A stretch of DNA of 64,000 nucleotides from Candidatus Thiodiazotropha sp. (GCA_050291245.1 JBNKJP010000067.1:31636-95635); one strand, 5' to 3'. Counted from the first letter of the stretch, positions 11,810-55,965 are shown. The notes: a model not told the origin generated them from the letters alone. Made by a program: numbers and translations.

Positions 11810-11828
11810 GTGGCCGGTGCGTCCCGCG

Positions 11829-27389: not shown

Positions 27390-28868
27390 ATGAAGATCAC
27401 TCTGACAGTCACCCAAACCGCCGGCATGCCACCGGCCCAACCCATGTCGGTCAGCTTCGACGAGGACGGCGGCCGGATCGGCCGGCGCGCGGACAACGAT
27501 TGGGTGTTGCCCGACCCGGAGCGGTTCATCTCCGGTCAGCATGCCCAGATCGGTTTTGCCGACGGTTGCTTCTACCTGCTCGACACCAGTTCCAACGGGG
27601 TGTTCATCAATAACGCCTCGTCCCCCCTGGGCAAGAACAACCAGGTCAATCTCACGGACGGTGACCGCATCACCATAGGCGACTACGAGATTCAGGTCTC
27701 CCTGCCCACCCCGCCCCAGGCCGCGGCCATCAGCCAGTCCTTCGAGGGGCTCGATGACCCGTTCGCGTCACTCTCGGAACAACATGCCGGCGGCTCCCTG
27801 GAACAGGCCTTTCCCCTCGCGGATGCACCACCCTCGGAAGCGCCTTCGGTGGAGGAATCCTATCAACTGGAGGAATCCGAACCCCGGGAGTTCAGCCTGA
27901 AGGAACCCGAGGAAGCGTCTCCTGGGATACCTCCGGCATCGGACCACACCTCGGACCTCAACGCCTATTTCAACCAACCCAGCCCGATCCCGGAAGACTG
28001 GGACCTGGATGAGTCTTCGTCCCAGGGGATCGATGCGCGGGAGTCAACACCCCTGCCGGAAATCCTGCCGCCACTGGAGACACCACCGGCCCGGGAGAAA
28101 ACCCCGCCTCCGCTGTGGGAGGAGGCGTCCGTGCAACCCTCCGAACCGGTTTCGATTCCGCGACCGGGACAAGGGGCCAAACCGGCGCCCCCCCCTGCTC
28201 CAGCGCCACCGGAACCCCAGGAGACTCCATCGGCACCGGAGTACCGTGGCGATGAAACCGGTTTACGCCAGGCCTTGGCAGACGGTCTGGGGATTCCCCC
28301 GAGCCATCTGGAATCCCTGCCCCTGGCAACACTGCTGAAGACCCTGGGACAGATCCTGCGCATCAGCACCGAGGGTAATATGTCCCTGTTGCGGGCCCGG
28401 GCCCAGATTAAGGGCGAATTCCGCATGAACCAGACCATGATCAAGCCGATGGAGAACAATCCCCTGAAATTCTCCATCAACACCGAGGAGGCCCTGCGAC
28501 AGCTCCTGAATCCGAATTCAGGCAGCGGTTATCTGACAGCCCTGGCCGCTTTTCAGGAAGCCCATGAGGATATCGAAGCCCATATGATGGCGGTCATGGT
28601 GGGGATGCAGGCGGCCCTCAAGGTGGTGCTGCAGCGTTTCAAACCGGAGATTCTGGAACAGCGTCTCGGCCAGTCGGCCCTGTTGGAAAAACTTCCGCTT
28701 TACCGCCATGCCAAGACCTGGGACCTGTTCACCGAACTCTACCAGGAGATCGCCACCGAGGCGGAGGATGACTTTCACCATCTGTTCGGCCGCACCTTCA
28801 CTCAGGCCTATGAAGACCAAATCCGTCGCCTGGAAGCACTGAAACGCTCGGATCCCAGTGGCTTATAA
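27390..28868 (+). CDS. tagH: T6SS FHA-domain protein TagH (Fha)
   Basis: FHA motif IGRRADNDWVLPDPERFISGQHA; Pro-rich linker; MNQTMIKPMENNPLKFS; FTQAYE. Confidence 0.93.
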   Translation: MKITLTVTQTAGMPPAQPMSVSFDEDGGRIGRRADNDWVLPDPERFISGQHAQIGFADGCFYLLDTSSNGVFINNASSPLGKNNQVNLTDGDRITIGDYEIQVSLPTPPQAAAISQSFEGLDDPFASLSEQHAGGSLEQAFPLADAPPSEAPSVEESYQLEESEPREFSLKEPEEASPGIPPASDHTSDLNAYFNQPSPIPEDWDLDESSSQGIDARESTPLPEILPPLETPPAREKTPPPLWEEASVQPSEPVSIPRPGQGAKPAPPPAPAPPEPQETPSAPEYRGDETGLRQALADGLGIPPSHLESLPLATLLKTLGQILRISTEGNMSLLRARAQIKGEFRMNQTMIKPMENNPLKFSINTEEALRQLLNPNSGSGYLTALAAFQEAHEDIEAHMMAVMVGMQAALKVVLQRFKPEILEQRLGQSALLEKLPLYRHAKTWDLFTELYQEIATEAEDDFHHLFGRTFTQAYEDQIRRLEALKRSDPSGL

Positions 28869-35000: not shown

Positions 35001-35627
35001 CCGGAGGGTACCCGGGAGGTGACGATCAGTGACTTCGGGCGCTTCTTCGGCCCCGGTGGAATGATGGACGATTTCTTCAATAATTACCTGCGACAGTTCG
35101 TCGATACCAGTCGCCGCACCTGGCGCTGGAATGCCGCCGGTAACCGCTCCCTAGGGATTCCTAGCAGTACCCTGAAACAGTTCCAGCGCGCGGCGGTGAT
35201 CCGGGACGCGTTCTTCAGCGGCAGTGGTCTGGAACCCAAAATCGACTTCGAGATCAAGCCCCTGGGCATGGACACTACCATCACCCAGATCACCCTGCTG
35301 CTGAACCAGCAGCGGGTACGCTACAACCACGGACCGACCCGTTGGAACCGTCTCACCTGGCCTGACGACTCCGGTATCAGCGATGCCAAGATCCTGTTGG
35401 CGCCACCTGCGGGTAGCAAACCCTCGGGCATCACCGAAGATGGTCCCTGGGGCTTGTTCCGCCTGCTCGACCAGGCCAAGGTCAGCCCCACCGATGCCCC
35501 GGAAACCCTCCAGGTGGCCTTTAATGTGGGGGGTCGAAAATCCCGTTTCGCCGTGCGTGCCAGCGGTGCGCTCAATCCCTTCAAGCTCAAAGAATTGACG
35601 GATTTCCAGTGCCCGAACCGACTCTGA
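32043..35627 (+). CDS. tssM: T6SS membrane complex protein TssM (IcmF)
   Basis: LPWYMFIGPPGSGKTT; TRNCDWWF; LDTAGRY; RGVYFTSGTQEG. Confidence 0.97.
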   Translation: MRALLRIIKNRWFVAILGLIALSVIIWLVGPLFAIAGYEPLGSVIARLVAIGIIILLWGANQFRRYWQARKKNQQMLESVVGQKDQPSRGAQESSEEIQILGQRLDEAIRILKESKVGGKQNRQYLYQLPWYMFIGPPGSGKTTALLNSGLHFPLADKLGNDAVQGIGGTRNCDWWFTDDAVLLDTAGRYTTQDSYEEVDRAAWMGFLDLLKKHRKRRPINGALVAISVEDILQQTDLERINHAKAIRMRVKELIDHFGIRFPIYVLFTKCDLLAGFNEFFENLPREERNQVWGMTFPLTDKSAQESGIGHFREEFRALEQRIDARLMDRLEQERDVKRRVLIYSFPQQFSALRDAAEAFLHEAFNANRFQETPMLRGVYFTSGTQEGTPIDRLLGSMAQEFGLNRQIAPAFSGSGRSYFINRLFKDLIFAESHLAGINTRVERQRAWLQRIAYAGSLGIAVLAGIAWFTSYSRNQSYIDQVAVQANAANTQVNAVAPDDLTLTDVVPALDQVRQIPGGYADRDSDIPWLMGLGLYQGDKLGSEAINAYHNTLKNLFLPRIILSLEDQLNQQGNNADFRYEALKVYLMFADSEHFDPETVKTWMLLQWQLDLPGAENAQARQTLAEHLDALLTQMPMPPTLPLDDALISRVRNDLLRVPLADRVYNRMKRVTQEGSLRPLRLTQEIGADAERVFSRRSGKSLDEPIPVLFTYEGYHKLFLKDHLAIANRLLDEKWILGPELEKIVGETDLNLLSRQVKDLYYTEYVRIWDQLLADIRVKPFSDMRQAVEILNIISGPTSPLRRYLTLIKEQTTLARLPGGAQKAAELAAKNSSGITRRLASILQVSPEEGDSQGQQDSMMTTPVDQHFASLNRMIEAGEGEQPPVERTIEMLNELYAHMSRIAGSGNQSSQAFDVARDQGAGGGVISRLKLEAKRQPGPIADMLTTLADGSSNLTVSGVRSHLNSVWNSQILPFCQRSLRGRYPLNPEGTREVTISDFGRFFGPGGMMDDFFNNYLRQFVDTSRRTWRWNAAGNRSLGIPSSTLKQFQRAAVIRDAFFSGSGLEPKIDFEIKPLGMDTTITQITLLLNQQRVRYNHGPTRWNRLTWPDDSGISDAKILLAPPAGSKPSGITEDGPWGLFRLLDQAKVSPTDAPETLQVAFNVGGRKSRFAVRASGALNPFKLKELTDFQCPNRL

Positions 35628-36394
35628 ATTCAACAACTAATGACGACTATCCTGGTCTCTACGGCAAGATTCCCACCCTCGGGGATTTCGTTACCCGACG
35701 CCTGCCCAGGGGCTTCATCGGACCCTGGGAGACCTGGATGCAGGAGGCGATCGCCAACAGTCGCGAACAGCTGGGCGATTTCTGGCTCGACAACTATCTG
35801 ACCAGCCCCCTGTGGCGATTCACCCTGTCACCCGGCATTTGCGGCGAACAGGGCTGGGCCGGCATTCTCATGCCGAGCGTGGACCGGGTCGGTCGTTACT
35901 ACCCTTTCACTCTGGCCGCACGGCTCGATCCCCAGTGCAATCTGTTCCTCTTCATGGAGGAGTCAGAGGGTTGGTTCTCCCGTATGGAGGATCTGGCCCT
36001 TTCCTGTCTCGATGATGGATTCGACATGGCCGCCCTGGACCAGCAACTGCAAGCCTTGGGAGCACCCACCTGCCAGGCCAATGAACTGGAACTGGGCGGG
36101 TCCGCCTTAAGCAATGCCTGGCATGCTCATCTGAGCGAGCAAGGGGCCCTGCGCGGCCTCTATCCCAGATTTCTCCCCCATCTGATGAAGAAACTGCTGT
36201 TTGCCTACAGCCTGTGGTGGACTCAGGGTTCCGAGCGCATCTCCCCCTCCCTGTTGATCTGTCAGGGACTGCCCCAGATCAAAGGCGCCAGCGCCCTGAT
36301 CGACGGCGCCTGGGCGCAACACGGCTGGGAGGAGATTGAAAGCGGAACCTTCCAGATGGGATTCACCCCGGATGAAACCCCAGAGTCCCCATGA
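35609..36394 (+). CDS. tagF: T6SS post-translational repressor TagF
   Basis: GLYGKIPTLGDFV; PSVDRVGRYYP; SLWWTQG. Confidence 0.92.
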   Translation: MPEPTLNSTTNDDYPGLYGKIPTLGDFVTRRLPRGFIGPWETWMQEAIANSREQLGDFWLDNYLTSPLWRFTLSPGICGEQGWAGILMPSVDRVGRYYPFTLAARLDPQCNLFLFMEESEGWFSRMEDLALSCLDDGFDMAALDQQLQALGAPTCQANELELGGSALSNAWHAHLSEQGALRGLYPRFLPHLMKKLLFAYSLWWTQGSERISPSLLICQGLPQIKGASALIDGAWAQHGWEEIESGTFQMGFTPDETPESP

Positions 36395-37146
36395 GTCAGA
36401 ACAGCTTCTATTGGGTCTCCGCGCACCTGTCAGACAAAGGGATGGTTCGTTCCATCAACGAGGACTCCTGTCTGGACCGGGCCGATCTGGGACTCTGGGT
36501 GGTCGCCGATGGCATGGGGGGCCATGCCGCGGGGGATCTCGCTTCGCAGATGATCGTGCATGAGCTCAAATCCACCCAACCCGGGGATTCGATCAGCCAT
36601 CTGGCCAATGAGGTCGCACTGCGCCTGCAGACGGTCAACCAGAGACTCCTGGAGGAATCGGAACGCAGGGGCGGGGAGATTATCGGCTCCACGGTTGTGA
36701 CCCTGCTGGCCCATGACGGTTACTGTATCTACCAGTGGGCCGGTGACAGCCGCATCTACCTGTTCCGCCGGGGCGTTCTCAAACAGCTCAGCCGGGATCA
36801 CAGCCAGATTGAAGAACTGATCGAGCTGGGAATGATGAGTGCCGACCAGGCCGAGCAGTCCTCCATCGCCAACTACATCACCCGTGCCGTGGGCGCCAGT
36901 GAAAACCTTGAACTCGAAGCCGAGATCATCGAACCCCGGGACGGGGATCTGTTCCTGCTGTGCAGCGACGGGCTGAACAAGGAGGTCAGCGACGAGGAGA
37001 TCGCCCAGGTTCTGGAGCGCTACCCGTTCCAGGAGGCCATCCAGCAGCTCATCGATCTGGCCATGGCCCGTGGCGCCCGAGACAACATCACCCTGATCCT
37101 GGTTGAGGCCCGCTCGACTCATATTGCGGGAGACAGTGAAATATGA
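36391..37146 (+). CDS. pppA: PP2C-family Ser/Thr phosphatase PppA (TagG)
   Basis: VADGMGGH; WAGDSRIY; SRDHS; LLCSDGL; DNIT; translationally coupled to tagF. Confidence 0.9.
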   Translation: MSQNSFYWVSAHLSDKGMVRSINEDSCLDRADLGLWVVADGMGGHAAGDLASQMIVHELKSTQPGDSISHLANEVALRLQTVNQRLLEESERRGGEIIGSTVVTLLAHDGYCIYQWAGDSRIYLFRRGVLKQLSRDHSQIEELIELGMMSADQAEQSSIANYITRAVGASENLELEAEIIEPRDGDLFLLCSDGLNKEVSDEEIAQVLERYPFQEAIQQLIDLAMARGARDNITLILVEARSTHIAGDSEI

Positions 37147-37207: not shown

Positions 37208-38554
37208 GTGAAAGTGGTCAATACCCGTATCGGGCAAGTTTGCAAGATCTCTCTGATTGCCCTAGTCACCCTGTCCCTCGCCGCCTGCGAGATGTTTGGC
37301 CCGACCCAAACCGAGGAGCCCGCCGAGACAATCGCGGAACCGGTCCAGGAGCCAACCCCCCCGCCCCCACCGGACAACCTCTCCCCCACCAAGCGGGTCC
37401 GCAAGGCCCTGCAACTGCTGCAAAACGGCGAATACGAGCAGGCCCGCAACCAGCTCAACTGGGCCCTTCAAGAGAAACCCAACCTACAAATCGCCAGTCA
37501 ATTACTGGAACAGCTGGATGCCGATCCCATTGACTACCTTGGCTTGAAGAATTTCTTCTATGATGTGCAGCCCGGTGACTCGCTCTCGCTGATTGCCAAA
37601 AAATTCCTCAATGATCCGATGAAATTCGTGATCCTTGCACGCTACAACAAGCTCGACAACCCGAGCCGCCTGGCCCCCGGACAACGCATACGGGTACCCG
37701 GTGAAATGCCCCCCCCGCCGCCGAAGCGCAAACCCAAACGCAAGAAACCACCCGTTCCGGTGCAGGTGACTCCGGTACCTGACGAAGTGCCGGTAACGGC
37801 CGAGCAGACCGAACCGTCCGTGGCAGAAGAGCCCGCGATGACGGAATCCCCCGCCGCCGAACCCAGCAATGAACCCGTCGTCGAGGTGGAACCCCATGAA
37901 GACGTCGCATCGCCTGAAACCACCCCAGAGCAGGCGCAGATCATCACGGACGACACACCGAACACCGCCGACACCCTGGAGACCGCCGGTCGACTGCACG
38001 GCACGGGGGATCTGGCAGGCGCCATTGCCCTGCTCGAGAGCGAGGCCTTGCGCAACCCTCAGGCTGACGAGATCAACACCCAGCTGGCCAAATATTACCG
38101 GGAGTACGCCAATCAGTTGATTGCCCGGGAGCAACTGGAACCGGCCCGTTCGGTTCTCGAAAAGCTGATCATTCTCGATGCCTCCGATGAACAAGCCATT
38201 AATACCCTGATCCTGGTCGAGGACCGCATCGAAGCCCGCAAGCTGTTCGTCAAAGCCGACGGACTGCAACAGGCCGGAAACCTTGAAGCCTCCTACCAAA
38301 CCTATTCCCAGGGATTGACCTACGATCCGGACAATGAAGCGGCCAAGACAGCGCAAAAAGCAGTCCTGGATCAGCTCACTGACAGCTATCACCGTCAAGC
38401 CATGCAACATTTCCGCAAACAGGAACTGGATCAGGCTCTGGAGTACTGGAACAAGATTCTGGAACTCGATCCGAACCATTCCCTGGCTCCCGGATATAAA
38501 GCCCGCGCCCTGGAGATGAAACAACAGTTGCAGAAGATCGCACCGGCCCAGTAA
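37208..38554 (+). CDS. LysM- and TPR-containing lipoprotein
   Basis: Lipobox LSLAA-C; LysM motif YDVQPGDSLSLIAKKFLND...LAPGQRIRVP; C-terminal TPRs (ALEYWNKILELDPNH). Confidence 0.8.
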   Translation: MKVVNTRIGQVCKISLIALVTLSLAACEMFGPTQTEEPAETIAEPVQEPTPPPPPDNLSPTKRVRKALQLLQNGEYEQARNQLNWALQEKPNLQIASQLLEQLDADPIDYLGLKNFFYDVQPGDSLSLIAKKFLNDPMKFVILARYNKLDNPSRLAPGQRIRVPGEMPPPPPKRKPKRKKPPVPVQVTPVPDEVPVTAEQTEPSVAEEPAMTESPAAEPSNEPVVEVEPHEDVASPETTPEQAQIITDDTPNTADTLETAGRLHGTGDLAGAIALLESEALRNPQADEINTQLAKYYREYANQLIAREQLEPARSVLEKLIILDASDEQAINTLILVEDRIEARKLFVKADGLQQAGNLEASYQTYSQGLTYDPDNEAAKTAQKAVLDQLTDSYHRQAMQHFRKQELDQALEYWNKILELDPNHSLAPGYKARALEMKQQLQKIAPAQ

Positions 38555-38652
38555 AGGTTATTGCTATTATTAACCCGGCACCTGAACAGGCATATTCAAG
38601 GTATCGGGTTAATAGGTTGCCGGTTTAATAGTGTTCCGTGCTTGGGGCCTGC

Positions 38653-39852
38653 TCATTCTTCCGGCATGGGCTGATTCATCACAGACTGCTCCAATCCTTC
38701 ATAGGTCAGGTTCAATTCCGGAATCGGATTGGGAATGTACGGCAGTTTCCTTTCCACCATTTCCTCGATCACCAAATCCGGTTTTTCAATCCCCAGCTGT
38801 TGTTTGAGGATCTGGAAATCCAATGTCCCCCAAACGTAGGTAATCCGACTGACTTGGCGGGAGAAATAGGGCCTCAGAAAATTGAAAAATGAGTCACGGA
38901 AAATCAGGGTCTTGAGCTGGGCGGTATCGCAGGTCTCTGAGTAGATGTCCGTTTCATCCGCATCCCCGGGACGCTTGACCGGCTTACAGCTCTTCTTGAA
39001 GACTGGACCAGGAGTTAATTCCTTGAAGTTTCGAATGCCAATCATCTCCGCGAGGTCACCGCCGGTATGCCCGGTTCCCGGGGTCATTTGATAGTAGTGA
39101 GGTTTGACCGCATGGGGAAAATAGGACGCGATAGCCTGAAAGATCTCATATTGCGCGATGTTCGCTGCGTAATGGTTCCAGTGGGAGTCCTTCATACCGT
39201 AGAGAAGGTGCTCCTTTTTACTCCCCAGGAGACGCTGTCTGAGATCCACCAGGGTTACATCGGTGTGCCCCCGGATATAATCCACCAATTGATCTGAACT
39301 GGACTGCGGGTTGACCTTCTGAATGTAGTCGGGGAGAAACTCCGGATAGACAGTGTGTTTATTGGGTACCAGTACGAACAGATACTCGATTCCCTGAGCA
39401 TTCAGCCACTGCTTCATCGTGGACATGTAACTTGCGACCTTTTGCAGATCCCCCTCAGAGTAACGACCGACGTTACGGGCATCACCCATGGGATTGCCGT
39501 AGTTGTTGTAACCGGTTCTGATCGAACCAAGAAACAACCAACCCGCTTTTCCAAAGGTTACATCCCGGGAAGGAGAGTCCCCCAGAACGAGCTTGATACG
39601 CCGATAGGTAGAAGAGAGCCAATCCCGACCACCGAAATGGTCTGCATAGTAGTCATCGAACAATCCCGGAAAACGTTTTATCGAACCGCCACGCAGTTTA
39701 AACGGAGGGAAACGGGCCAAGGTGCGCTTTTCCGCTTTCGATACCCGGGCATCTTCCTCGAGAATACTCCCGATCAAGGACGCGAAGATCGTGACCAGAA
39801 ACACCAGACTTATGAGAATGCTGTTGAATTTATAGCGTGTACGGATGTTCAT
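38653..39852 (-). CDS. AlgJ/AlgX-like SGNH polysaccharide O-acetyltransferase (DHHW family)
   Basis: N-terminal TM; EKRTLA; GKAGWLF; PNKHTVYPE; DSHWN; IFRDSF; adjacent to an MBOAT gene. Confidence 0.8.
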   Translation of the reverse strand: MNIRTRYKFNSILISLVFLVTIFASLIGSILEEDARVSKAEKRTLARFPPFKLRGGSIKRFPGLFDDYYADHFGGRDWLSSTYRRIKLVLGDSPSRDVTFGKAGWLFLGSIRTGYNNYGNPMGDARNVGRYSEGDLQKVASYMSTMKQWLNAQGIEYLFVLVPNKHTVYPEFLPDYIQKVNPQSSSDQLVDYIRGHTDVTLVDLRQRLLGSKKEHLLYGMKDSHWNHYAANIAQYEIFQAIASYFPHAVKPHYYQMTPGTGHTGGDLAEMIGIRNFKELTPGPVFKKSCKPVKRPGDADETDIYSETCDTAQLKTLIFRDSFFNFLRPYFSRQVSRITYVWGTLDFQILKQQLGIEKPDLVIEEMVERKLPYIPNPIPELNLTYEGLEQSVMNQPMPEE

Positions 39853-41294
39853 CAGAAGCGAAAATAGATAAACGGGTTATAGGTTGAGGAAGCCACCTTA
39901 ACCAGGCTCAGTAAAAACAGTGAACAGAGCAAAACCAATCTGGGCAGATCGATAAACAGGGCGGTTCCAACAACCGCATGCCGTGTTCTCTTTTCGAGCC
40001 AATTTTTCAACCCCGGATAGACCGGCATTGCCAACAGAATGGCAATCGGCAACACCAGCAGGGATTCATGTGTCACTACCTGCAAAAACTGGAACTCGCT
40101 TGTGGCAAAATTCCGCAGGTTGAACATAGCGTATAAATAATCGAGCGCCTGGGTAAGATTGTCGGCACGAAAGAAAACCCAGCTGAGCATCACAACACTC
40201 AATAGATAGAGATGTTGAAGCGGCTTCCACATCCTTTGCAACTGATTTGAAAACCCCGCATGTTCACTGGCGAGAAACACCCCATGGAAGAGTCCCCAGA
40301 CCAGAAAATTCCAACTGGCACCATGCCAGAATCCGGTCAGCATGAAGACCAGAAAAAGATTGGCATAGACCCTGAGCGTTGAAACCCGGCTCCCACCCAG
40401 GGGGATATAGACATAATCCCGAAACCAGCTGGACAGGGAGATATGCCAACGTTTCCAGAACATTCGCAGGGAGGTCGCAATATAGGGATAGTTGAAGTTT
40501 TCGTGAAACCGGAAACCGAACATGCGGCCCAGCCCGATGGCCATATCGGAATAACCTGAAAAGTCGAAGTAGATCTGCAGGGTGTAGGCCAGGATTCCCA
40601 ACCAGGCCAGGGGCAGGGTCAGATCATCCCCGGTTGTGATAAACACCAAATCAGCGATCTCCGCGAGTGGATTGGCAATCAACACCTTTTTCGCCAGTCC
40701 GTAAATAAAGCGCATGGTGCCGCTGGCGAAAAGCTCAATCGAGTGCTGCCGGTCGGTGATCTGTGCAGAAACGTCATGATAGCGCACGATTGGCCCGGCG
40801 ATCAGTTGCGGAAACAATGCAATATACAACCCCAGATCAAGCCACCGCTTCTGTGCGGGAACCTCCCCCCGATACACATCGACCAGGTATGAAATGGCCT
40901 GAAATGTAAAAAACGAGATACCCAACGGCAGGTGAATCGATGGAATGCGGATGGACGGAAGGTGAATGAAATGCATCGCGATATTGAGGTTATCTACGAT
41001 AAAGTTGGCATATTTGAAAGAGATCATCAGCAACAGATTGAGTGCAACACCCAATGCCAGATAACCGTCACGTTTTCTCTTTAGGCCGTGATGCCGGTCG
41101 ATTTTCCGGCCGACCAGAAAGTTGACGCTGATCGACAACAGCATCACGAATACATAGAAGACCTCTCCCCAGGCATAAAAGACCAGACTGGCGATCAGCA
41201 ACCAGCGATTCTTATACCGGCCGGGCGATAGATAGTAGAGGAACAGAACAACGGGTAGGAATCCAAACAGGAAAACAGGCGTACTAAAAACCAT
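39852..41294 (-). CDS. MBOAT family O-acyltransferase (AlgI/PatA-like)
   Basis: LPLGISFFTFQAISY; FPQLIAGPIVR; DFSGYSDMAIG; FWKRWHISLS; GFWHGA; FIYFRF. Confidence 0.93.
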   Translation of the reverse strand: MVFSTPVFLFGFLPVVLFLYYLSPGRYKNRWLLIASLVFYAWGEVFYVFVMLLSISVNFLVGRKIDRHHGLKRKRDGYLALGVALNLLLMISFKYANFIVDNLNIAMHFIHLPSIRIPSIHLPLGISFFTFQAISYLVDVYRGEVPAQKRWLDLGLYIALFPQLIAGPIVRYHDVSAQITDRQHSIELFASGTMRFIYGLAKKVLIANPLAEIADLVFITTGDDLTLPLAWLGILAYTLQIYFDFSGYSDMAIGLGRMFGFRFHENFNYPYIATSLRMFWKRWHISLSSWFRDYVYIPLGGSRVSTLRVYANLFLVFMLTGFWHGASWNFLVWGLFHGVFLASEHAGFSNQLQRMWKPLQHLYLLSVVMLSWVFFRADNLTQALDYLYAMFNLRNFATSEFQFLQVVTHESLLVLPIAILLAMPVYPGLKNWLEKRTRHAVVGTALFIDLPRLVLLCSLFLLSLVKVASSTYNPFIYFRF

Positions 41295-41706
41295 GAAAAG
41301 CCCTGATGCCCGGGGTGCATTTACCCAATTCCTTGATCACGAATAGGCCCTCTACTTTAATGCCCCGACTATGCCTGAAATGGCATTTAATTGAGTACCA
41401 AGGCGTATGAGCTGTCGGCTTGCGCTGCCGGACAGAGTGCAATGTGGACGGATTTTCGATCAGTCGAGCTGCAACTTCAAGCATTACCCCAGGGAAAAAA
41501 CCGGCCATACCGGTATACCCCTGCCGAAGGCAAGAAGAATACGAATCCGGTTCCTAAAATTATCGAAATTACCGCCAATTCTCGCAAAAGAAACAAGACT
41601 TTATTTCATATTCATAATGATTGTGTAGAATGATCGTGCACTGCAGATCCAGTGCATTTCCGCGTAACGGATTGCGCAACGCATATGGCTCATCGAATCA
41701 TCGGAT

Positions 41707-42450
41707 TTGTGCCCAATGCTTGAGACGCTTTCAACAAATGCTCTGATTATGGCAGGCGGAATCATTGGATCCGCATACATCATCAGGGGTATCGCCGGTT
41801 TCGGTTCAGGTCTGATCGCGATACCCCTGCTCGCCCTGATCATGCCCTTGAGCACCGCGGTGCCGCTGATCGTGCTGCTGGATTATATTGCCTCGGCCAG
41901 TCAGGGCCTGTCTAATCGAAAGGCCATCCAATGGAAGGATCTTCTGCCCCTTCTCCCCTTCTCCCTGCTGGGAGTGTGTCTGGCACTGTTCCTGTTTCAA
42001 TCGTTGGAGATGCAGCTGCTGATACACGGACTTGGCATTTTTCTGTTGCTGTTCGCGATCTACTCTCTGCTCGCGTTTACCCCAAAATTCCGACCCTCTG
42101 TCCTGTGGGCCATCCCCGGCGGTATACTGGGCGGGATGATCGGCACCCTGTTCGGCACTGGCGGTCCCTTTTATGTGATCTACCTGAAACTGCTTGGGCT
42201 GCAGAAAAACTCATTTCGGGCAACTTTCGCAACGATCTTCCTGATCGATGGATTCGGGCGCATTTCAGGATACCTGATAACGGGTTATATCGATCTCAAT
42301 CAGACGCTGTTAACGGCCTTAGCCCTTCCTGTGATGGCGATCGGTATGTATCTCGGAGGACAGATCCACACCACTCTCTCACAACAGGTGTTTCAGCGTG
42401 GAATCAGCATTCTGTTGATCTTCAGCAGTCTGTCACTGTTATGTAAATAA
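41707..42450 (+). CDS. Sulfite exporter TauE/SafE family membrane protein
   Basis: GIAGFGSGLIA and GTLFGTGGP motifs; about 8 TM helices. Confidence 0.85.
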   Translation: MCPMLETLSTNALIMAGGIIGSAYIIRGIAGFGSGLIAIPLLALIMPLSTAVPLIVLLDYIASASQGLSNRKAIQWKDLLPLLPFSLLGVCLALFLFQSLEMQLLIHGLGIFLLLFAIYSLLAFTPKFRPSVLWAIPGGILGGMIGTLFGTGGPFYVIYLKLLGLQKNSFRATFATIFLIDGFGRISGYLITGYIDLNQTLLTALALPVMAIGMYLGGQIHTTLSQQVFQRGISILLIFSSLSLLCK

Positions 42451-42467
42451 TCCCCATCTAAGACCGA

Positions 42468-43235
42468 TCATTGGAACGTATTAACCAATGAGCCAATCCC
42501 ACCAATGTATACCTCAACGGTGCACCCGGGATTCATGGGTCCCGCGCCCAGGGAGGTTCCGCAGGCAATCACATCCCCGGTATACAGGGTCATATCATGA
42601 GACAGGCGGCTGACGATCTGATGGGGGAGAAAAAACATGTCATCTACAGGATAGTTCTGCATTTCCACCCCGTCGACCAGGGTCTGTACCACCAGTGACG
42701 AGGCATTCAAGCCGGTGGCGACGACCGGTCCTATCGCGCCAAAGGTGTCAAAACTCTTGGCTCGGGTCCATTGCACAAAGGCCGGATCCTCACGCATCAG
42801 CCCTCGTGCCGTGACATCATTGACGCAAGTGTAGCCAAAGATATGGCGTTCGGCCTGATCCTCCGACACCTGACAACACTCCCTGCCGATGACGATCCCG
42901 AGTTCGCCTTCAAAGACTACCGGGCCGGAATAGGAACTCGGCTGCTGTATCTGGCCGCCGCTGGGTAAAAACGAACCATTGGCCTTCATGAAATAGAGTG
43001 GATGAGTCGGCTTTGTCCAACCTTCGAGCTCCGCCCGGCTGTGAAAGTTGTTCCACAGACCGATCAATTTTCCCGGTTTTGTGGGTATCAGGATCCTCAC
43101 ATCTGTCAGCGGTAGTAAGTCACCGGTCGGTATCGGGTCCTCAAACATATCACCCTCATAGATCGCGACATGATCGTTTCTCACCACCCCGAACTTTTCG
43201 CATCCTAAATATTCGAACCGGACCCAATGTGACAT
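42468..43235 (-). CDS. Fumarylacetoacetate hydrolase family protein
   Basis: FEGELGIVIG; GYTCVNDVTAR; RAKSFDTF; GDVIACGT. Confidence 0.9.
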   Translation of the reverse strand: MSHWVRFEYLGCEKFGVVRNDHVAIYEGDMFEDPIPTGDLLPLTDVRILIPTKPGKLIGLWNNFHSRAELEGWTKPTHPLYFMKANGSFLPSGGQIQQPSSYSGPVVFEGELGIVIGRECCQVSEDQAERHIFGYTCVNDVTARGLMREDPAFVQWTRAKSFDTFGAIGPVVATGLNASSLVVQTLVDGVEMQNYPVDDMFFLPHQIVSRLSHDMTLYTGDVIACGTSLGAGPMNPGCTVEVYIGGIGSLVNTFQ

Positions 43236-43246
43236 TGAGCTTCTCC

Positions 43247-44263
43247 CTAGGGATTCACAGAATTCTGGATGCGCAGTTGAATTTTTTTATCCAGAGGATT
43301 GAACTTCAACGCCGCCTGCCATAAGGCCACTGCGTCGTCGCGATTCTCACGCGCACGCTGAACCCCCTCAAGATAGAGGGTTTTCGCATAGGTTTTGCGT
43401 TGTTTGCTGAGCTTGGACAGTGCTTTCTTATCCCCCTTTACACTGTTTTCAGCCTGTTGCAACTCGTTCAGCGTCTGGACATAGTCCTGTCGACCAAAGG
43501 CCTGTTGCGCCTTTGACAGACGCAGATTAAACAGCATAGTCCGCAACTCGTTATCCTGCGGGTACTTTGTGACATGGGCTTCCAACTCTTTGATGAAGTC
43601 AGAGGCCTTGCGAGCACGATCATCGGCCTGAAGTATCGACTGGCGCGAATAGGCATAACCCTCATCACGTAATTCCTGTTCCTCATGGGCTTTGCGGCTT
43701 TTACGTGGGCGATCGGGGTATTTCACTTGCAACCGCTGTCGTGCCTGGCGCTCATCCATGCCCCTCAAGGCTTCGAGCGCCTGATGGTTCGCCGGATCCA
43801 GGCCGAGAAGATCGAGATAAAGATTTTGTGCTTTTTGGAGATGCCCTTTTTGCATCGCCTTTTTCGCTGACGCCGCCAATCGGTGGGTTTTTTTCCGGAT
43901 CGCCCGGTCGAGCCGCTCGATATGCCGGGTAATTTCACGATCATTTTCCGATAAGGTGTGAGCGACACGGTACCCATATCGTGCCCGCTGTAAATCCCCG
44001 GCCTGCTCATTGTGTTCCGCCAAAGCGATCCAGTAGCCGGTAGTGGCCGTATCTCCGGAGACAGCACGATGCGACATATCGGAGGCACATCCCGCAATCA
44101 TGACAAGACTGATCAAATAGCTGCCCTTCAGCAGCCTGCGAGCGAACCCCCTTTGAACCTGACGTAAAGTGGTTGCGATTGAGCAGCCGGATACGTAACT
44201 GTCGGAGATGGTAAACAGTCGTATCGATACGTCGAAGCGGGTAAGGTTCGTAATTACTTTCAC
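43247..44263 (-). CDS. TPR-containing lipoprotein (true start probably downstream of the track start)
   Basis: Lipobox LVMIAG-C preceded by a basic/hydrophobic signal; TPR motifs LLGLDPANHQA and ALKFNPLD. Confidence 0.65.
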   Translation of the reverse strand: MKVITNLTRFDVSIRLFTISDSYVSGCSIATTLRQVQRGFARRLLKGSYLISLVMIAGCASDMSHRAVSGDTATTGYWIALAEHNEQAGDLQRARYGYRVAHTLSENDREITRHIERLDRAIRKKTHRLAASAKKAMQKGHLQKAQNLYLDLLGLDPANHQALEALRGMDERQARQRLQVKYPDRPRKSRKAHEEQELRDEGYAYSRQSILQADDRARKASDFIKELEAHVTKYPQDNELRTMLFNLRLSKAQQAFGRQDYVQTLNELQQAENSVKGDKKALSKLSKQRKTYAKTLYLEGVQRARENRDDAVALWQAALKFNPLDKKIQLRIQNSVNP

Positions 44264-44313
44264 GGCCTGACTATGATTCTTTTCCGTTCTGGGTGGCGGC
44301 AGACAAACCCGGT

Positions 44314-45309
44314 TTATTTGTCCCGACGCGCCTGATAGGTTTCAAGTCGGCGAACAAAGGCATCCAGGTCCCTATCTCCATAGATCATGCTGCGATGCAG
44401 CGTGTAGGGATAGGTAAAGGCGGCATTGGATTCCGATTCGACGGTCAGTCCCATTACGACACCACGTTGCTTGAGAATATCAATAACCTTGTCATTGGTG
44501 GCGCCAAAAGGATAGGCATAGTAATGAGGGGTGGCTCCGAGTTTCTGACTGATCGTCTCAATCGGCGCCTCGACCTCATGGTCAACTCTGTGAAGATATT
44601 GCCGCCTGGATTCGTCCGAGTTTCGCCGGGTCAGGTTCGCATGGCTCTTCGAATGGGGCTGTACGCTGATCAAACCGCTTCGTTTCATGGTGCGGAGTTC
44701 CCGGGTCGTCAGTCCACCTCGATTCATGTAGTCCGTATAGAGGAAAATGGTCGCGGGAAACTGGAACTCCTTGAGGATGGGGAATGCCACCTTATAGATA
44801 GAACGGTGACCGTCATCGATGGTCAACACGAGCGACCGTTTGGGGATGGCCTTTTCCCCTCTGAGAAAGCCCAACAGATCATCCAATGGAATCACCCGAT
44901 AGCCGTTGGATACAAGATACTGCATCTGTTCTCGAAACTGGCTGGCGGAGACCTCGAGCTTGCCACCGCGACCGCCAAATCGATGGTAGCAGAGTATTGG
45001 TACAGTTTGATATCCGGCGGGATCGATTCCGGTAGGATTGAAGTCTTTCAGAGGTATTACCACATGCCCGCCAGGCACCAGGTCCTGCTCACGGTTCGCA
45101 TCCTCGATCACCCAGTATTTCGCCTCACTGCCGAGATAGCGTTGCGCCAGTTTTTTGGTGGATTCCCGACCCATTTGCACGATTACAAAGGTGTCATCAC
45201 GGGCGATGACACGGCTTTGCCGGTCGAAGGGGCCAGTTGCACATCCCGCCAGCATCAAGACCCATGACAGGAGCAGCAGAGTGATCGATGGTTTCATCAT
45301 GGCAGGCAT
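44314..45309 (-). CDS. Polysaccharide deacetylase (NodB/CE4) lipoprotein with degenerate LysM-like N-domain
   Basis: Lipobox LMLAG-C; KKLAQRYLG...LVPGGHVVIP; PILCYHRF; LTIDDG; HSKSH; YAYPFG. Confidence 0.85.
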   Translation of the reverse strand: MPAMMKPSITLLLLSWVLMLAGCATGPFDRQSRVIARDDTFVIVQMGRESTKKLAQRYLGSEAKYWVIEDANREQDLVPGGHVVIPLKDFNPTGIDPAGYQTVPILCYHRFGGRGGKLEVSASQFREQMQYLVSNGYRVIPLDDLLGFLRGEKAIPKRSLVLTIDDGHRSIYKVAFPILKEFQFPATIFLYTDYMNRGGLTTRELRTMKRSGLISVQPHSKSHANLTRRNSDESRRQYLHRVDHEVEAPIETISQKLGATPHYYAYPFGATNDKVIDILKQRGVVMGLTVESESNAAFTYPYTLHRSMIYGDRDLDAFVRRLETYQARRDK

Positions 45310-45348
45310 ATCATGGGGGCGGTGTGGATTTAACGACTCGCGGCGTCA

Positions 45349-47181
45349 TCAACGCTTGATGATGCGGGTCGCATCGTCGATATTCTCCTCCTCATCCTGA
45401 AAACCGCTCCTGAAGGACTCCCTGTCAGGCTGAGATTGTTCAGACACCGGTGCGACCCGGGTCTCGTCGCCATCCTCCCGCGACGGCTCTGGAATCGGGG
45501 GCAGGGAAGCATCGGGTATGGGGCGCGGCGTGATCGATAATGACTGTTCCACCTTCTGCAGGCCATCCGCCATTCGGTTGTATTCGGTGAACAGGAGACC
45601 CAACTCATCGTTGCGCTCCTCACGTATTCGATAGCCATAGTTCCCATGATGCACATGGATGATCGCCTTGCGCAGGATTCTCATCGGTAGTGTAATGCCG
45701 GTTGCCAGCAGATAGGCAACGATGACGACTGTCATCACCACCGCCAGCAGCAAGGCCAGCATGGTATAGAAGGTCAGGTCCGCAGCCGCGATCAACGGTG
45801 TCTGGGACATACCCAGTTGGACACCACCGATTATCTTGTTCTGGAAGAGTATGGGAGCCTGAAAGTCGAAAACCCGTTCCCCATTCCATTCTCCTTCGGA
45901 AATCTGCACACCCTCACCACCTCTGAGTATCTGCATCGAGTCCTGCGGCTGGCGAACCTTCGAAACCTCGTTTTCCAGGGTGCTGGCCCGGACAATCTGC
46001 TTGAAATCGAAGATCCTCAGGTAGCTGATCTGCTGGCGTTCCTTGATCTCCTGAACAAAGGTTTCGACCGCAACCCAGTCCTGAATCAGGATCGCCTCAG
46101 CGCTTTCGATTGCCATGAACTCGGCCAGCGAGCCACCGGAATCGAGGGTCAATTCCGTCATGGTGTCGACCTGCTTCTGATACACGAGATAGGAACCAAG
46201 GATCATCGCCAGTGAAACCACGGAAGCCATAATGGCTGTCCATTTGATACGCAACGGAAGGATCTTCGTCTCGTTGCTGTGTTGTCGTTTTTCATCGATC
46301 TCCCGTACCACTCGTCGCAGGGCGATGGCCAGTTCCTTACCGGTTTGAAAGCGCTGATCGGGTTTTTTGCTGAGCAACTTCTCGACAATATGCTTCAGGC
46401 TCTGAGGAACATCCTTGTTTTTCGCATCGATGGGGGGCGGATCTTCCTGCACGATCTTCATCAGCAGGGAGGTGAAGGTCTCCGATACGAACGGCCGCTC
46501 ACCGGTGATCAGTTGATAGAGAATCACGCCGAGGGAAAACAGATCGGAACGTCCATCCGCAGGCAATCCTTCCACCTGCTCTGGCGACATATATTGGGGG
46601 GTCCCCAGTACAGCGCCCAACATGGTGTGATGTTCTTTGTTGGGTGCTTCCATCCGAGCGATGCCGAAATCGGTGATGCGTATCGTGTGTTCGTCTCCGG
46701 GGGAGATGATGTTGCCGGGTTTGACATCACGGTGAACGATGCCATGGGCATGGGAATAGTCCAGCGCTTCCGCCAATTGAATACCATAGATCACCACCTC
46801 TCGGAGCGAGACCTCGGTTTTATCCACCATCATCTGCTCAAGGGTGCGCCCCTCAAGAAACTCCATGGCGATATAGGGCCCTTGTTCAACCTCACCGACG
46901 TCGAAAATGGTGACGATGTTGGGGTGTGTGAGTTTACCCGCGGCCTTGGCCTCTTGCAGAAACCGGTAGCGGTACTCCGAATCCGCGGCAAGCTCTCCCC
47001 TGAGTATTTTGATGGCCAGGATACGGTTTATCTCGGGATCGAAAGCCTTATAGACAATCGACATGGCACCTTCACCTACCTCCTCAAGGAGTTGGAACCT
47101 GCCAATCGACTCCGGCATCGGTTTCTGACTGTTCAAATTAACCTCTCCCGCCACTGCGCAAAACAACGTGGGCACTTCCAC
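45349..47181 (-). CDS. Hanks-type Ser/Thr protein kinase with TM, periplasmic domain, TM and HAMP (candidate PpkA substitute)
   Basis: GEGAMSIVY; HRDVKPGN; TDFGIAR; GTPQYMSPE; two TMs; HAMP motif PMRILRKAI...RNDELGLLFTEYNRMA. The start could be at 47136 or 47118. Confidence 0.9.
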   Translation of the reverse strand: MEVPTLFCAVAGEVNLNSQKPMPESIGRFQLLEEVGEGAMSIVYKAFDPEINRILAIKILRGELAADSEYRYRFLQEAKAAGKLTHPNIVTIFDVGEVEQGPYIAMEFLEGRTLEQMMVDKTEVSLREVVIYGIQLAEALDYSHAHGIVHRDVKPGNIISPGDEHTIRITDFGIARMEAPNKEHHTMLGAVLGTPQYMSPEQVEGLPADGRSDLFSLGVILYQLITGERPFVSETFTSLLMKIVQEDPPPIDAKNKDVPQSLKHIVEKLLSKKPDQRFQTGKELAIALRRVVREIDEKRQHSNETKILPLRIKWTAIMASVVSLAMILGSYLVYQKQVDTMTELTLDSGGSLAEFMAIESAEAILIQDWVAVETFVQEIKERQQISYLRIFDFKQIVRASTLENEVSKVRQPQDSMQILRGGEGVQISEGEWNGERVFDFQAPILFQNKIIGGVQLGMSQTPLIAAADLTFYTMLALLLAVVMTVVIVAYLLATGITLPMRILRKAIIHVHHGNYGYRIREERNDELGLLFTEYNRMADGLQKVEQSLSITPRPIPDASLPPIPEPSREDGDETRVAPVSEQSQPDRESFRSGFQDEEENIDDATRIIKR

Positions 47182-47432: not shown

Positions 47433-48224
47433 ATGACACAGACATTCGACATCCCGCGCCTCATCGAGCTACGTAAACTCACCCGGTCGATTTCTGACAG
47501 TCTTCAATCCCAGCTCAAGACCTATCTTTCGACACTGGCCCCCCTGTTCTCTCCCATACCCCAGTTGGGGGAACATGTGCGCGGAGGACCGAAATCATTA
47601 GTCAAAGGCGCGGAAAAAAACTTCCAGGAGCTCAGGAACCACTATCACGCGATTGTTCGCCAGGCGCCATTTTCCCTGGACACGGAACTGAGCTCTCCAC
47701 TCGATGTGTTCGCCGCAACCCCGGCACTGACTCCGGTCGAATATACCTACACGGCGGATCAAGATGGGCGAACAACACAGCTGCGGGTGACCTCACCCCT
47801 GAAATGGGTACTCTCCTATCCGGAAACACAACCGAAGAAACTGTTGGAACTACTCAAAGGCAACAGAAGCCAAGTGAGAGAAGAGTTGTCCCATGCGCTT
47901 TTGCAATGCATGACACTGAACCTGGTGCTTGAAAAACAACCCGGTCTCTCGGCACTCCTCAGCGATTTGCGATTCAGCATCGAAACCACTCAGGTCGACG
48001 GGTTGGGCTCACTTCCGGTCATCCTGGTATCCTGCCCCATCGCAACATTGCTACCTCCGGATGACATTATCGTCCAGAGTACCGAGATCTCCGGCATTCC
48101 CTCCTTCGAGGAGGTCATCGATATCGAGGACATTCGTAATCTGTCCGATCCCCTCAGAGAGCGAATCCTGGACATCACCCGGGAGACCTCACCAGCTATC
48201 CAACAGGAGATCGCTGCAGGTTGA
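47433..48224 (+). CDS. Conserved hypothetical protein, 263 aa
   Basis: Long clean ORF with a GGA RBS and globular composition; no motif recognised. Confidence 0.7.
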   Translation: MTQTFDIPRLIELRKLTRSISDSLQSQLKTYLSTLAPLFSPIPQLGEHVRGGPKSLVKGAEKNFQELRNHYHAIVRQAPFSLDTELSSPLDVFAATPALTPVEYTYTADQDGRTTQLRVTSPLKWVLSYPETQPKKLLELLKGNRSQVREELSHALLQCMTLNLVLEKQPGLSALLSDLRFSIETTQVDGLGSLPVILVSCPIATLLPPDDIIVQSTEISGIPSFEEVIDIEDIRNLSDPLRERILDITRETSPAIQQEIAAG

Positions 48225-54607: not shown

Positions 54608-55657
54608 TCAATCCAAGGGCAGGTCCAGGCTAACGACGCCCTCATCCGGAGTCAGCTGATCGACCGCCTGTTTCCAGCGCGGATCGAGATGGACCTGCTG
54701 CCAGGTGACGGGCTTTCTCCCATGCATACGCACCAGCCGTACATGGGCCGCAGGATCATCATGCTCAGCAAGCCGCTCCAACACCTGATACGCGGCGGGG
54801 CGGTTGTTACAGATCAATACCATATCACAACCCGCCATCAGTGCGGCCTTTGCCCGATCACCGTAGTCGCCTGCCTCCTGGGCAGCGGCCATGTTGAGAT
54901 CATCACTGAAGATCACCCCCTGGAAAGCCAACTGTTTACGGAGTACGGTTTTCAACCAGAACCGGGAGAACCCCGCCAGATCGGGATCGATCCCCTGATA
55001 GATCACATGGGCGGGCATGATCGCCTCCATTCCGGATTGGATCATGTTCTCAAAGGGCCTGAGATCATCCATCTGCAGATCCTCGAAGCGTCGTTGATCC
55101 ACCGGCAGCGCCAGGTGGGAATCCGCCTCCACGCCACCATGACCCGGAAAATGTTTCCCGACCACCGCCATGCCCGCTGAATGACTGCCGTGCATCCAGG
55201 CTTGGGCCAGACGCGAGACGATTTCAGGACGTCTGGAAAAGGCTCGATCACCAATCACCTCGCTGATACCGTGCCCAAGATCCAGAACCGGTGCGAAGCT
55301 GAAATCGATCCCGCAACTGCGCAATTCCATGGCCATCAACCACCCCCCCTGCTCGGCCAGTCGGAGCCCCTTTTCCGGGTGCTTTTCGTACTGTTCACCA
55401 TACCAGGCCGCGGCAGGCAATTGGGTGAATTCCGTGCGAAAACGCTGTACTCGTCCGCCTTCGTGATCCACCGCGATCAGAAGATGCGGGGTTCTCGCCT
55501 CGTGAATCTCCTGGCAGAGCCGGCGCAGCTGCGCCATGGACTCGTAGTTGCGGGTAAACAGAATCACCCCACCCACGGCGGGATGTTTGAGCAGATTGCG
55601 TTCTTCATCCGAGAGCCGGGTTCCTTCCAGATCCAGCATGACCGGACCAAGGCTCAT
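54608..55657 (-). CDS. nagZ: Beta-N-acetylhexosaminidase NagZ (GH3)
   Basis: GGVILFTRN; AVDHEGGRVQR; KHFPGHG; IFSDDL. Confidence 0.96.
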   Translation of the reverse strand: MSLGPVMLDLEGTRLSDEERNLLKHPAVGGVILFTRNYESMAQLRRLCQEIHEARTPHLLIAVDHEGGRVQRFRTEFTQLPAAAWYGEQYEKHPEKGLRLAEQGGWLMAMELRSCGIDFSFAPVLDLGHGISEVIGDRAFSRRPEIVSRLAQAWMHGSHSAGMAVVGKHFPGHGGVEADSHLALPVDQRRFEDLQMDDLRPFENMIQSGMEAIMPAHVIYQGIDPDLAGFSRFWLKTVLRKQLAFQGVIFSDDLNMAAAQEAGDYGDRAKAALMAGCDMVLICNNRPAAYQVLERLAEHDDPAAHVRLVRMHGRKPVTWQQVHLDPRWKQAVDQLTPDEGVVSLDLPLD

Positions 55658-55965
55658 CGACCTGCCCTCTCAAACCGGTGACTCCTGTCAAGTAGGAAGC
55701 CGCCACGAAGTGGATCGGGCAATAGATCGGACATGGTGATTATTCCTGTTCGCTGTTGGATGAACGGTCTTTTGTAATTCAATTGCATAGTGACTGCAAG
55801 AATCGCTTTGCCTACGGCCCTCCGGGCCAGCTTCCAGTCCTTGTGGCCCGCTCATCACAGCGGAAAGGCTATGCATTGAAAATCAAGGTCAAGTGATGGG
55901 GCAAAATGCCGTAAACCTGATAGATCCGGAATTCCTTTTTTTTTGACAGACTGAACGACCCTACC

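Follow-up and report, generated by a model that had tools for sequence, protein, structure and literature searches.

A recurrent kinase and lipoprotein cassette, probably a sensor for type VI secretion system assembly, in Candidatus Thiodiazotropha and other bacteria

The cassette and its type VI secretion cluster

A cassette of four genes encoding a membrane Ser/Thr kinase and three lipoproteins was identified beside a type VI secretion system (T6SS) gene cluster in Candidatus Thiodiazotropha sp. (GCA_050291245.1 JBNKJP010000067.1:31636-95635), and this cassette is probably an undescribed sensor that tells the T6SS when to assemble. Candidatus Thiodiazotropha are sulfur-oxidising gill symbionts whose hosts are lucinid clams. 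The window, i.e. the whole stretch of DNA that was analysed, comprises 64,000 nt, and positions are counted from its first nucleotide. The four genes encode a Hanks Ser/Thr kinase (45349-47181, - strand), a lipoprotein with a LysM-like N-terminal domain and a CE4 de-N-acetylase domain of the PgaB/IcaB/PplD type (44314-45309, - strand), a TPR lipoprotein (43247-44263, - strand) and a LysM-TPR lipoprotein of 448 aa (37208-38554, + strand), respectively. The first three genes form an operon that converges on the fourth, which is the last gene of the T6SS operon and lies about 8 kb away. The domain content of the proteins, their intact catalytic residues, lipoboxes and fold relationships, and the conserved linkage of the genes to T6SS switch genes were obtained from the data. 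Most likely, the cassette provides a new sensor module for a threonine-phosphorylation switch of the T6SS.

The T6SS on the + strand of the window is complete and ends with tagH…tagF-pppA. The gene order is tssA (from 16330), tssB, tssC, hcp, tagJ/impE (20366-21175, + strand), tssE, tssF, tssG, clpV and tagH, followed by tssJ, tssK, a long-form tssL, tssM, tagF and pppA. The gene tagH (27390-28868, + strand; TIGR03354, E 4e-106) encodes the FHA-domain protein TagH/Fha, the presumed substrate and reader of the kinase, tagF (35609-36394, + strand; TagF_N, TIGR03373) encodes a post-translational T6SS repressor, and pppA (36391-37146, + strand; PP2C_2, Stp1_PP2C_phos) encodes the PP2C phosphatase PppA/TagG, which counteracts the kinase in the threonine phosphorylation pathway. 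The start of pppA overlaps the stop of tagF by 4 nt, and 61 nt separate pppA from the LysM-TPR gene that follows it. No Hanks kinase other than that of the cassette is encoded in the window, and no TagR/S/T-type proteins (FGE-sulfatase, FtsX/ABC) were found among the scanned open reading frames (ORFs) of the 64 kb.

A first-pass annotation of this DNA, made from the sequence alone, had described a T6SS operon with tagH, tagF and pppA that lacks ppkA and tagQRST, a LysM-TPR lipoprotein directly after pppA, and a converging operon for a kinase, a deacetylase lipoprotein and a TPR lipoprotein. Matches to family profiles agreed with the first of these claims within the window, the gene arrangement and strands agreed with the other two, and every gene that it had placed there proved to be an intact ORF.

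Conservation of the cassette

A set of 77 loci from other species was collected solely through the Cache-HAMP region of the kinase (an alignment of 8 sequences), a criterion that is blind to the T6SS, and nine further loci came from exact-protein look-ups. The contigs represent one genome per species, with flanks of up to 10 kb on each side, and individual loci are referred to by number (L001 onwards). The window proteins were mapped onto the loci by tblastn and phmmer and representatives were checked with Pfam; homologues were gathered by single-pass phmmer and clustering. Counts for distant loci refer to the 32 that have at least 7 kb of downstream flank.

The recurrent gene order is kinase>CE4>TPR>, with LysM-TPR next to it on the opposite strand. 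This order was found in Sedimenticolaceae, Chromatiaceae/Chromatiales, Casimicrobiaceae and Rhodocyclaceae, in many Burkholderiales of the Sphaerotilaceae and Comamonadaceae (Ideonella, Roseateles, Azohydromonas, Rhizobacter and Albitalea), and in one metagenome-assembled genome (MAG) each of the Beijerinckiaceae and the ‘Deltaproteobacteria’. Among the distant loci, the CE4 gene is present in 27/32, the LysM-TPR gene lies downstream of the kinase gene in 30/32 (in 29 on the opposite strand), and the TPR gene is third in 22/32; the full cassette was likewise found in 22/32. In Burkholderiales the cassette genes overlap by 4 nt (L056). The 22 Sedimenticolaceae-like species representatives with enough flank retain kinase-CE4-TPR in 21 cases, and the LysM-TPR gene together with the T6SS cluster lies within 10 kb in only 13 of the 22. 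Because the four genes recur together in dozens of species, their grouping is beyond chance.

Small genes for GNAT acetyltransferases were also seen inside or adjoining the cassette at five distant loci (L009, 13746-14225; L066, 8387-8941; L054, L069 and L079).

Linkage to T6SS genes

A T6SS core gene or tagF occurs within 10 kb of the cassette in 18 of the 32 distant loci. This number rises to 21/32 when long TagH is added and to 24/32 when pppA is added too, while the chance expectation for a random gene to lie near a T6SS is about 1-2%, by our own estimate from the sizes of clusters and genomes. The junctions between cassette and T6SS genes are of at least six kinds across lineages, including LysM-TPR<pppA<tagF<tssM, LysM-TPR<pppA<tagH, LysM-TPR< tagH>pppA> tagF<tssM<, LysM-TPR< tssA>tssB>tssC>, tssA< kinase> and pppA>kinase> (L007). 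Since the junctions differ between lineages, they point to selection on the linkage rather than to one inherited arrangement. In the kinase tree, T6SS linkage occurs on both main branches with scattered exceptions.

The first-pass annotation had proposed that the four genes would be found together and beside tagH/pppA in other genomes, and that the intervening MBOAT, TauE and FAH genes of the window would be missing there. The counts given above (full cassette in 22/32 and T6SS genes, with long TagH, in 21/32) are in line with the first proposal, and two loci without AlgX, MBOAT, TauE and FAH genes are in line with the second. In L041 (Chromatiaceae), the kinase of which groups with the Sedimenticolaceae kinases, the order is unk263< kinase> CE4> TPR> <LysM-TPR <pppA <tagF <tssM <tssL with nothing between, unk263 being a 263-aa protein of no known family. 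In L042 the cassette is contiguous with tagF-tssM-tssL, and pppA lies inside a merged ORF. The kinase or its cassette adjoins pppA/tagH/tagF without interruption in L041, L045-L047, L007 and many Burkholderiales, and the Cache-HAMP kinase is the sole kinase seen in most T6SS-linked loci.

Two loci (L038 and L043) contain a PP2C gene, a double-FHA protein gene, a cassette in which LysM-TPR occurs as two paralogues, and a VipA-VipB fusion gene. The fusion (L043, 17099-18883; L038, approximately 11184 onwards) has 594 aa and shows 24% identity (E 5e-12) to a similar fusion in the window. Apart from the fusion, no T6SS gene was seen within 10 kb at these two loci. At L007, a separate DUF4384-TPR protein and a Peptidase_C14-SH3-FGE-sulfatase protein are encoded nearby.

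The kinase

The kinase is the proposed equivalent of PpkA/TagE. It shows a strong Pfam match to Pkinase (residues 30-279, E 1.5e-51) and a match to HAMP (residues 492-542), and the catalytic motifs LAIK, HRDVKPGN and DFG (DFGIA) are intact in the sequence. Translation probably begins at the ATG at 47118. The architecture comprises the kinase domain, a first transmembrane helix (TM1), a periplasmic single-Cache domain, a second helix (TM2), HAMP and an acidic/Pro-rich tail. A Pfam match of the middle region to sCache_3_2 (residues 351-463, E 2e-5) lies below the cut-off. The AlphaFold2 (AF2) model of residues 305-552 (pLDDT 86.5) consists of a TM helix, a PDC/Cache sheet, a TM helix and HAMP, and its best structural match is WalK (9a5d_A, TMq 0.73), followed by the Staphylococcus aureus WalK ectodomain, CitA, DctB and KinD. 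The NCBIfam model HK_WalK also matches residues 371-546 (1e-12). HisKA/HATPase_c transmitter domains were not found in the protein, which ends about 65 residues past HAMP. In PpkA, a single TM helix is combined with a von Willebrand A-type (vWA) domain in the periplasm; the cassette kinase has no match to vWA, and two TM helices flank the Cache domain instead. The earlier description of this protein as a kinase-HAMP holds for both of the domains that it named, and the periplasmic single-Cache domain between the two TM helices is to be added to it. The Hanks kinase thus has a histidine-kinase-style input (Cache-HAMP), in an unusual topology.

Large kinase-TPR proteins were observed in the vicinity of the cassette kinase in a few loci. 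Such a protein (about 1026 aa) is encoded in place of the T6SS/LysM-TPR genes in L011 (18202-20730, - strand), L010 (18497-20740, - strand) and L037 (650-3730, - strand), and in L037 its gene directly follows the Cache-HAMP kinase gene with no CE4 gene between.

The three lipoproteins

The deacetylase lipoprotein (Polysacc_deac_1, TIGR03938/TIGR03933) contains a lipobox (LAGC) with Cys23, which is invariant in 50/50 homologues. The catalytic and metal-binding residues H109, D165, D166, H219 and H223 are invariant in 69/69 homologues, and the protein is predicted to be catalytically active on the basis of these residues. Its AF2 model (pLDDT 92.6) gave PplD, PgaB-N, BC0361, IcaB and BpsB as top Foldseek matches, with E 1e-18 to PplD and PgaB-N. 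The N-terminal ~70 residues have no Pfam match. The domain at about residues 30-95 is modelled by AF2 as strand-strand-helix-helix-strand, and it matches a LysM profile built from the LysM-TPR family with an hhalign probability of 97.5% (E 6e-12); the label ‘LysM-like’ that the first-pass annotation gave to the deacetylase is therefore correct. A reading of the deacetylase as part of a poly-N-acetylglucosamine (PNAG; pga/ica) system was considered and rejected because neither the window nor the examined locus neighbourhoods showed any PNAG synthase genes (pgaCD/icaAD).

The LysM-TPR lipoprotein carries the lipobox LSLAAC with Cys27, a Pfam LysM domain at residues 118-164 (E 1.5e-9) and a C-terminal TPR at residues 392-424. 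A crude lipobox pattern was found in 48/57 of its homologues. The TPR lipoprotein has weak TPR matches and the lipobox MIAGC with its Cys at codon 59; the start of its gene is uncertain, as no ATG, GTG or TTG lies between codons 1 and 50. The homologous proteins of other lineages likewise combine TPR with a lipobox, and lipoboxes are found in the TPR and LysM-TPR proteins of essentially all lineages. The three lipoproteins originally proposed, two of them with LysM or LysM-like domains, are thus upheld by lipoboxes, Pfam LysM and hhalign. LysM domains bind glycan, and glycan binding through the LysM domains of the cassette lipoproteins is predicted. Together with the intact deacetylase and the WalK-like sensor fold, the LysM domains and lipoboxes fit a cell-wall-facing input.

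Proposed mechanism

In the proposed mechanism, the three lipoproteins would act as a periplasmic input module, in the role that TagQ/TagR have for PpkA in Pseudomonas aeruginosa. They would be anchored in the envelope, two of them gripping peptidoglycan or another glycan containing N-acetylglucosamine (GlcNAc) through LysM, and the TPR parts may scaffold the complex. A change in the cell wall (damage, turnover products or the acetylation state set by the deacetylase) would alter the contact of the complex with the Cache domain of the kinase. The signal could then pass through TM1/TM2 and HAMP and change the dimerisation or autophosphorylation of the cytoplasmic kinase domain. The kinase would phosphorylate TagH (or TssL), leading to T6SS assembly, with PppA reversing the phosphorylation and TagF acting as a parallel brake. 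We infer from domain content and gene linkage all of the physical interactions, the stimulus (peptidoglycan or GlcNAc polymer) and the substrate (TagH/TssL phosphorylation). On balance, we consider it likely that the kinase is the PpkA/TagE-equivalent, modulated through its Cache domain by a lipoprotein complex on peptidoglycan, with TagH as target, PppA as eraser and TagF as parallel brake.

A broader version of this mechanism is possible, although we hold it only tentatively. The cassette may be a portable sensor of cell-wall state for Gram-negative Hanks kinases, in which the deacetylase makes or destroys the module's own ligand, the lipoprotein complex on peptidoglycan gates the WalK-like sensor on the kinase, and the kinase plugs into whichever FHA output is adjacent. 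The ligand could be a deacetylated muropeptide or a GlcNAc oligomer, for example, released by incoming wall-degrading effectors or during host contact. The outputs would be TagH in most Proteobacteria and FHA-adenylate/guanylate cyclases in others, so that a common sensory cassette would serve different FHA outputs. If true, this would amount to a wall-damage-triggered switch for T6SS retaliation or firing, mechanistically distinct from the membrane-damage switch TagQRST.

Exceptions and alternative explanations

Several observations weigh against a dedicated T6SS sensor. The kinase operon of the window lies 8.2 kb from pppA with four unrelated genes between, and the kinase-TM-Cache-TM-HAMP architecture departs from the single TM helix and vWA domain of PpkA. 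In L008 and L009 the full cassette lies beside FHA-adenylate/guanylate cyclase genes with no T6SS. Six Sedimenticolaceae loci (L010, L011, L014, L025, L027 and L035) contain an intact kinase-CE4-TPR operon with no LysM-TPR or T6SS gene within 10 kb; in L014, L025, L027 and L035 unrelated genes adjoin the operon in place of the T6SS. In a small clade (L049, L061, L065 and L086) and in L039, the gene set is limited to a small FHA gene, the kinase and LysM-TPR, with PP2C in some cases. A second Hanks kinase with a periplasmic DUF4384 domain is encoded beside tagF in L051 (18002-20713, - strand) and L085 (2816-4954, + strand), and the cassette kinase therefore need not be the only kinase of the threonine phosphorylation pathway.

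The codon composition also differs. The GC content at third codon positions (GC3) is 0.70-0.81 in the T6SS core of the window and lower, 0.58-0.67, in neighbouring genes including the kinase operon. An offset of about 0.1 between T6SS and neighbouring genes is also present in L041, L019 and L017 and is not seen in the Burkholderiales loci. As a sign of separate origins of the T6SS and the kinase operon this evidence is weak, because the genes of L041 are contiguous and show the same offset, with LysM-TPR grouping with the kinase operon.

Occurrence of the module independently of the T6SS had been named in the first-pass annotation as one of two findings that would refute it. Full exclusivity does not hold, as L008, L009 and the six Sedimenticolaceae loci show, which widens the reading without refuting it. 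The cassette is best regarded as a module that feeds into Hanks-kinase/FHA signalling, with the T6SS switch as its predominant partner. Two further loci, L001 and L002, were at one point considered as cases of an identical kinase without a T6SS, and were rejected as such: a 433-aa LysM-TPR gene begins at the locus end, behind approximately 4.3 kb of cargo.

The same exceptions bear on an alternative that we consider unlikely, namely that the cassette is a pathway for envelope homeostasis in general, equivalent to WalK but built on a Hanks kinase in Gram-negative bacteria, which directs wall or exopolysaccharide modification through FHA proteins. Here, T6SS adjacency would reflect nothing more than the FHA and PP2C genes present in T6SS clusters, and the kinase operon of Thiodiazotropha would be independent of the T6SS. 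The retention of kinase-CE4-TPR in species with no T6SS within 10 kb agrees with this explanation, as do the synteny of the operon in Sedimenticolaceae with housekeeping genes (tpx, NagZ-like GH3, YkuD and an oligopeptide transporter), the FHA-cyclases adjoining the T6SS-free copies, the FHA genes located immediately upstream of the kinase gene in L039, L043 and L086, and the resemblance of kinase-operon GC3 to that of its flanks. However, linkage at 18/32 distant loci, through many junctions, is to T6SS-specific genes beyond FHA and PP2C (tagF, tssM, tssA/B/C and vgrG), and VgrG-DUF2169-PAAR-Rhs genes often lie beside the operon even in Sedimenticolaceae loci where the main T6SS cluster does not adjoin it (L031, L033 and L036). 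An envelope pathway and a T6SS sensor are, moreover, not mutually exclusive.

It is rather improbable that the lipoproteins are instead structural or biogenesis factors, which bind and locally deacetylate peptidoglycan to anchor or pass the T6SS membrane complex, as TagL/TagN/TagX and MltE do; in a variant, the cell would modify its own wall to withstand muramidase effectors, whether self-made or incoming. The kinase would merely set the timing. The strong constraint on the deacetylase as an enzyme, the textbook glycan binding of LysM domains and the probable co-transcription of the LysM-TPR gene with T6SS genes in the window are all compatible with such a role, and a precedent comes from Legionella, where peptidoglycan deacetylation is reported to control a secretion machine (PMC10266036). 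Yet the two lipoprotein genes downstream of the kinase are operonic and translationally coupled with it and not with tssJLM, the lipoproteins accompany the kinase where the T6SS is absent (L008 and L009), and the TssL of the window, a long form, already has its own OmpA-type peptidoglycan anchor. Finally, the 8 kb separation, the unrelated genes between and an operon composition unlike the T6SS core might suggest that the proximity in the window is a coincidence and the kinase operon unrelated to the T6SS, but the same four genes recur, rearranged, beside T6SS genes across orders and classes, which strongly disfavours this explanation and leaves it a very small probability.

Genes between and around the cassette halves

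Four unrelated genes lie between the two halves of the cassette in the window (38653-43235), none of them a cassette member. As assigned by Pfam, they encode an AlgX-like SGNH protein (38653-39852, - strand), an MBOAT protein (39852-41294, - strand), a TauE protein (41707-42450, + strand) and an FAH-family hydrolase (42468-43235, - strand). The MBOAT/AlgX pair is restricted to the three closest relatives (L010, L011 and L023) and is thus variable cargo; other Sedimenticolaceae loci contain Peptidase_C39-TPR/DUF6627 cargo in its place. FAH and TauE genes were not found in any locus outside Sedimenticolaceae. The contiguous arrangement in L041 implies that, in Sedimenticolaceae, FAH/TauE and the variable cargo were probably inserted later between the cassette halves. 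The MBOAT and AlgX-like SGNH genes (38653-41294, - strand) resemble a glycan O-acetylation couple, an acetylation theme that echoes the deacetylase.

The gene divergent from the kinase (47433-48224, + strand) encodes the 263-aa protein, which has no Pfam or NCBIfam match. No signal peptide was seen on reading its N-terminal sequence. It adjoins the kinase in 35 loci, comprising all Sedimenticolaceae and the Chromatiaceae locus L041, and is not present in the others; as a neighbour it is specific to this clade, and whether it belongs to the cassette is uncertain. Further along (54608-60168, - strand), the window contains genes for a NagZ-like GH3 protein, a YkuD L,D-transpeptidase, an SBP_bac_5 binding protein and two permeases. 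This set resembles one for murein recycling and is syntenic with the kinase operon throughout Thiodiazotropha. A scan for promoters and terminators gave a signal no better than that of shuffled sequences, and a search for RNA-seq runs that contain this DNA found none.

Upstream of the T6SS core, the window contains vgrG and a fused VipA+VipB (TssB-TssC) sheath paralogue (14753-16147, + strand), the latter upstream of tssA. A HEAT-repeat protein (TIGR02270) and a DUF6484 protein are encoded downstream of vgrG (10565-12317, - strand). A HEAT_2 protein gene also lies between LysM-TPR and tagH in L070, and another is near L008. The first ORF of the window (3-1685, + strand) belongs to an autotransporter with Ig-like passenger domains that is truncated by the window start, so that its C-terminal part remains.

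Comparison with known systems

No description of the cassette was found in full-text literature searches, and none of the four proteins has a specific NCBIfam model. LysM proteins, deacetylases and HAMP-bearing kinases are all missing from the T6SS accessory factors tabulated in a review of 2026 (PMC13584744).

The deacetylase shares its fold and its metal-binding and catalytic residues with the CE4 group of PgaB, IcaB, BpsB and PplD, and is anchored as a lipoprotein like PgaB. It differs from this group in lacking the C-terminal domain of PgaB, in having an extra LysM-like N-terminal domain and in being encoded always after a Ser/Thr kinase gene. TagL, TagN, TagP, TagX and long TssL are, like the cassette lipoproteins, T6SS-linked envelope proteins that bind or modify peptidoglycan. 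However, they carry OmpA-type or endopeptidase domains and serve in anchoring or passage, and none of them is a LysM protein, a deacetylase or tied to the kinase (PMC13584744).

WalK (YycG), the sensor of cell-wall metabolism in Firmicutes that acts with YycH/YycI, resembles the cassette kinase in the arrangement TM - single Cache/PDC - TM - HAMP and in having extracytoplasmic accessory proteins encoded in the same operon, although the accessory proteins themselves are unrelated. The output of the cassette protein is an N-terminal Hanks kinase, whereas that of WalK is a C-terminal histidine kinase; in addition, the HAMP domain of the cassette protein is near the protein end and the organism is Gram-negative.

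A close counterpart is the H1-T6SS pathway of P. aeruginosa (PpkA, PppA and Fha1), in which the T6SS is likewise accompanied by genes for a Hanks kinase of the membrane, a PP2C phosphatase and an FHA protein, and TagF is a parallel brake. In P. aeruginosa, TagQ, a lipoprotein of the outer membrane, and TagR, which is periplasmic, act on PpkA (PMC13713981), and in Serratia RtkS acts on PpkA (PMC13584744). The cassette is like PpkA-TagQRST in that one or more envelope lipoproteins are proposed to act on the periplasmic part of the kinase, and like RtkS-PpkA of Serratia marcescens in that a lineage-specific periplasmic input would replace TagQRST (PMC13584744). RtkS is a single periplasmic protein that is unrelated to the cassette lipoproteins and has neither an enzyme nor LysM. 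None of the cassette parts is homologous to TagQ, TagR or RtkS; a LysM-CE4 enzyme and TPR and LysM-TPR lipoproteins are found instead, and no TagQ/R/S/T-type protein is encoded in the window.

The cue for the T6SS kinase/phosphatase/FHA switch is known only for TagQRST (Pseudomonas) and RtkS (Serratia), and the cassette is a concrete and widespread candidate input, carried by Sedimenticolaceae symbionts, Chromatiales, many Burkholderiales, Rhodocyclaceae and some Alphaproteobacteria. Its recognisable parts (two LysM domains, a predicted active deacetylase and a WalK-like sensor) allow direct testing in cultivable Roseateles, Azohydromonas and Albitalea. In lucinid symbionts, T6SS firing during host colonisation or competition may depend on cell-wall or GlcNAc-polymer cues. 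The proposed cue would be the state of the cell wall, and not the outer-membrane damage to which TagQRST is linked.

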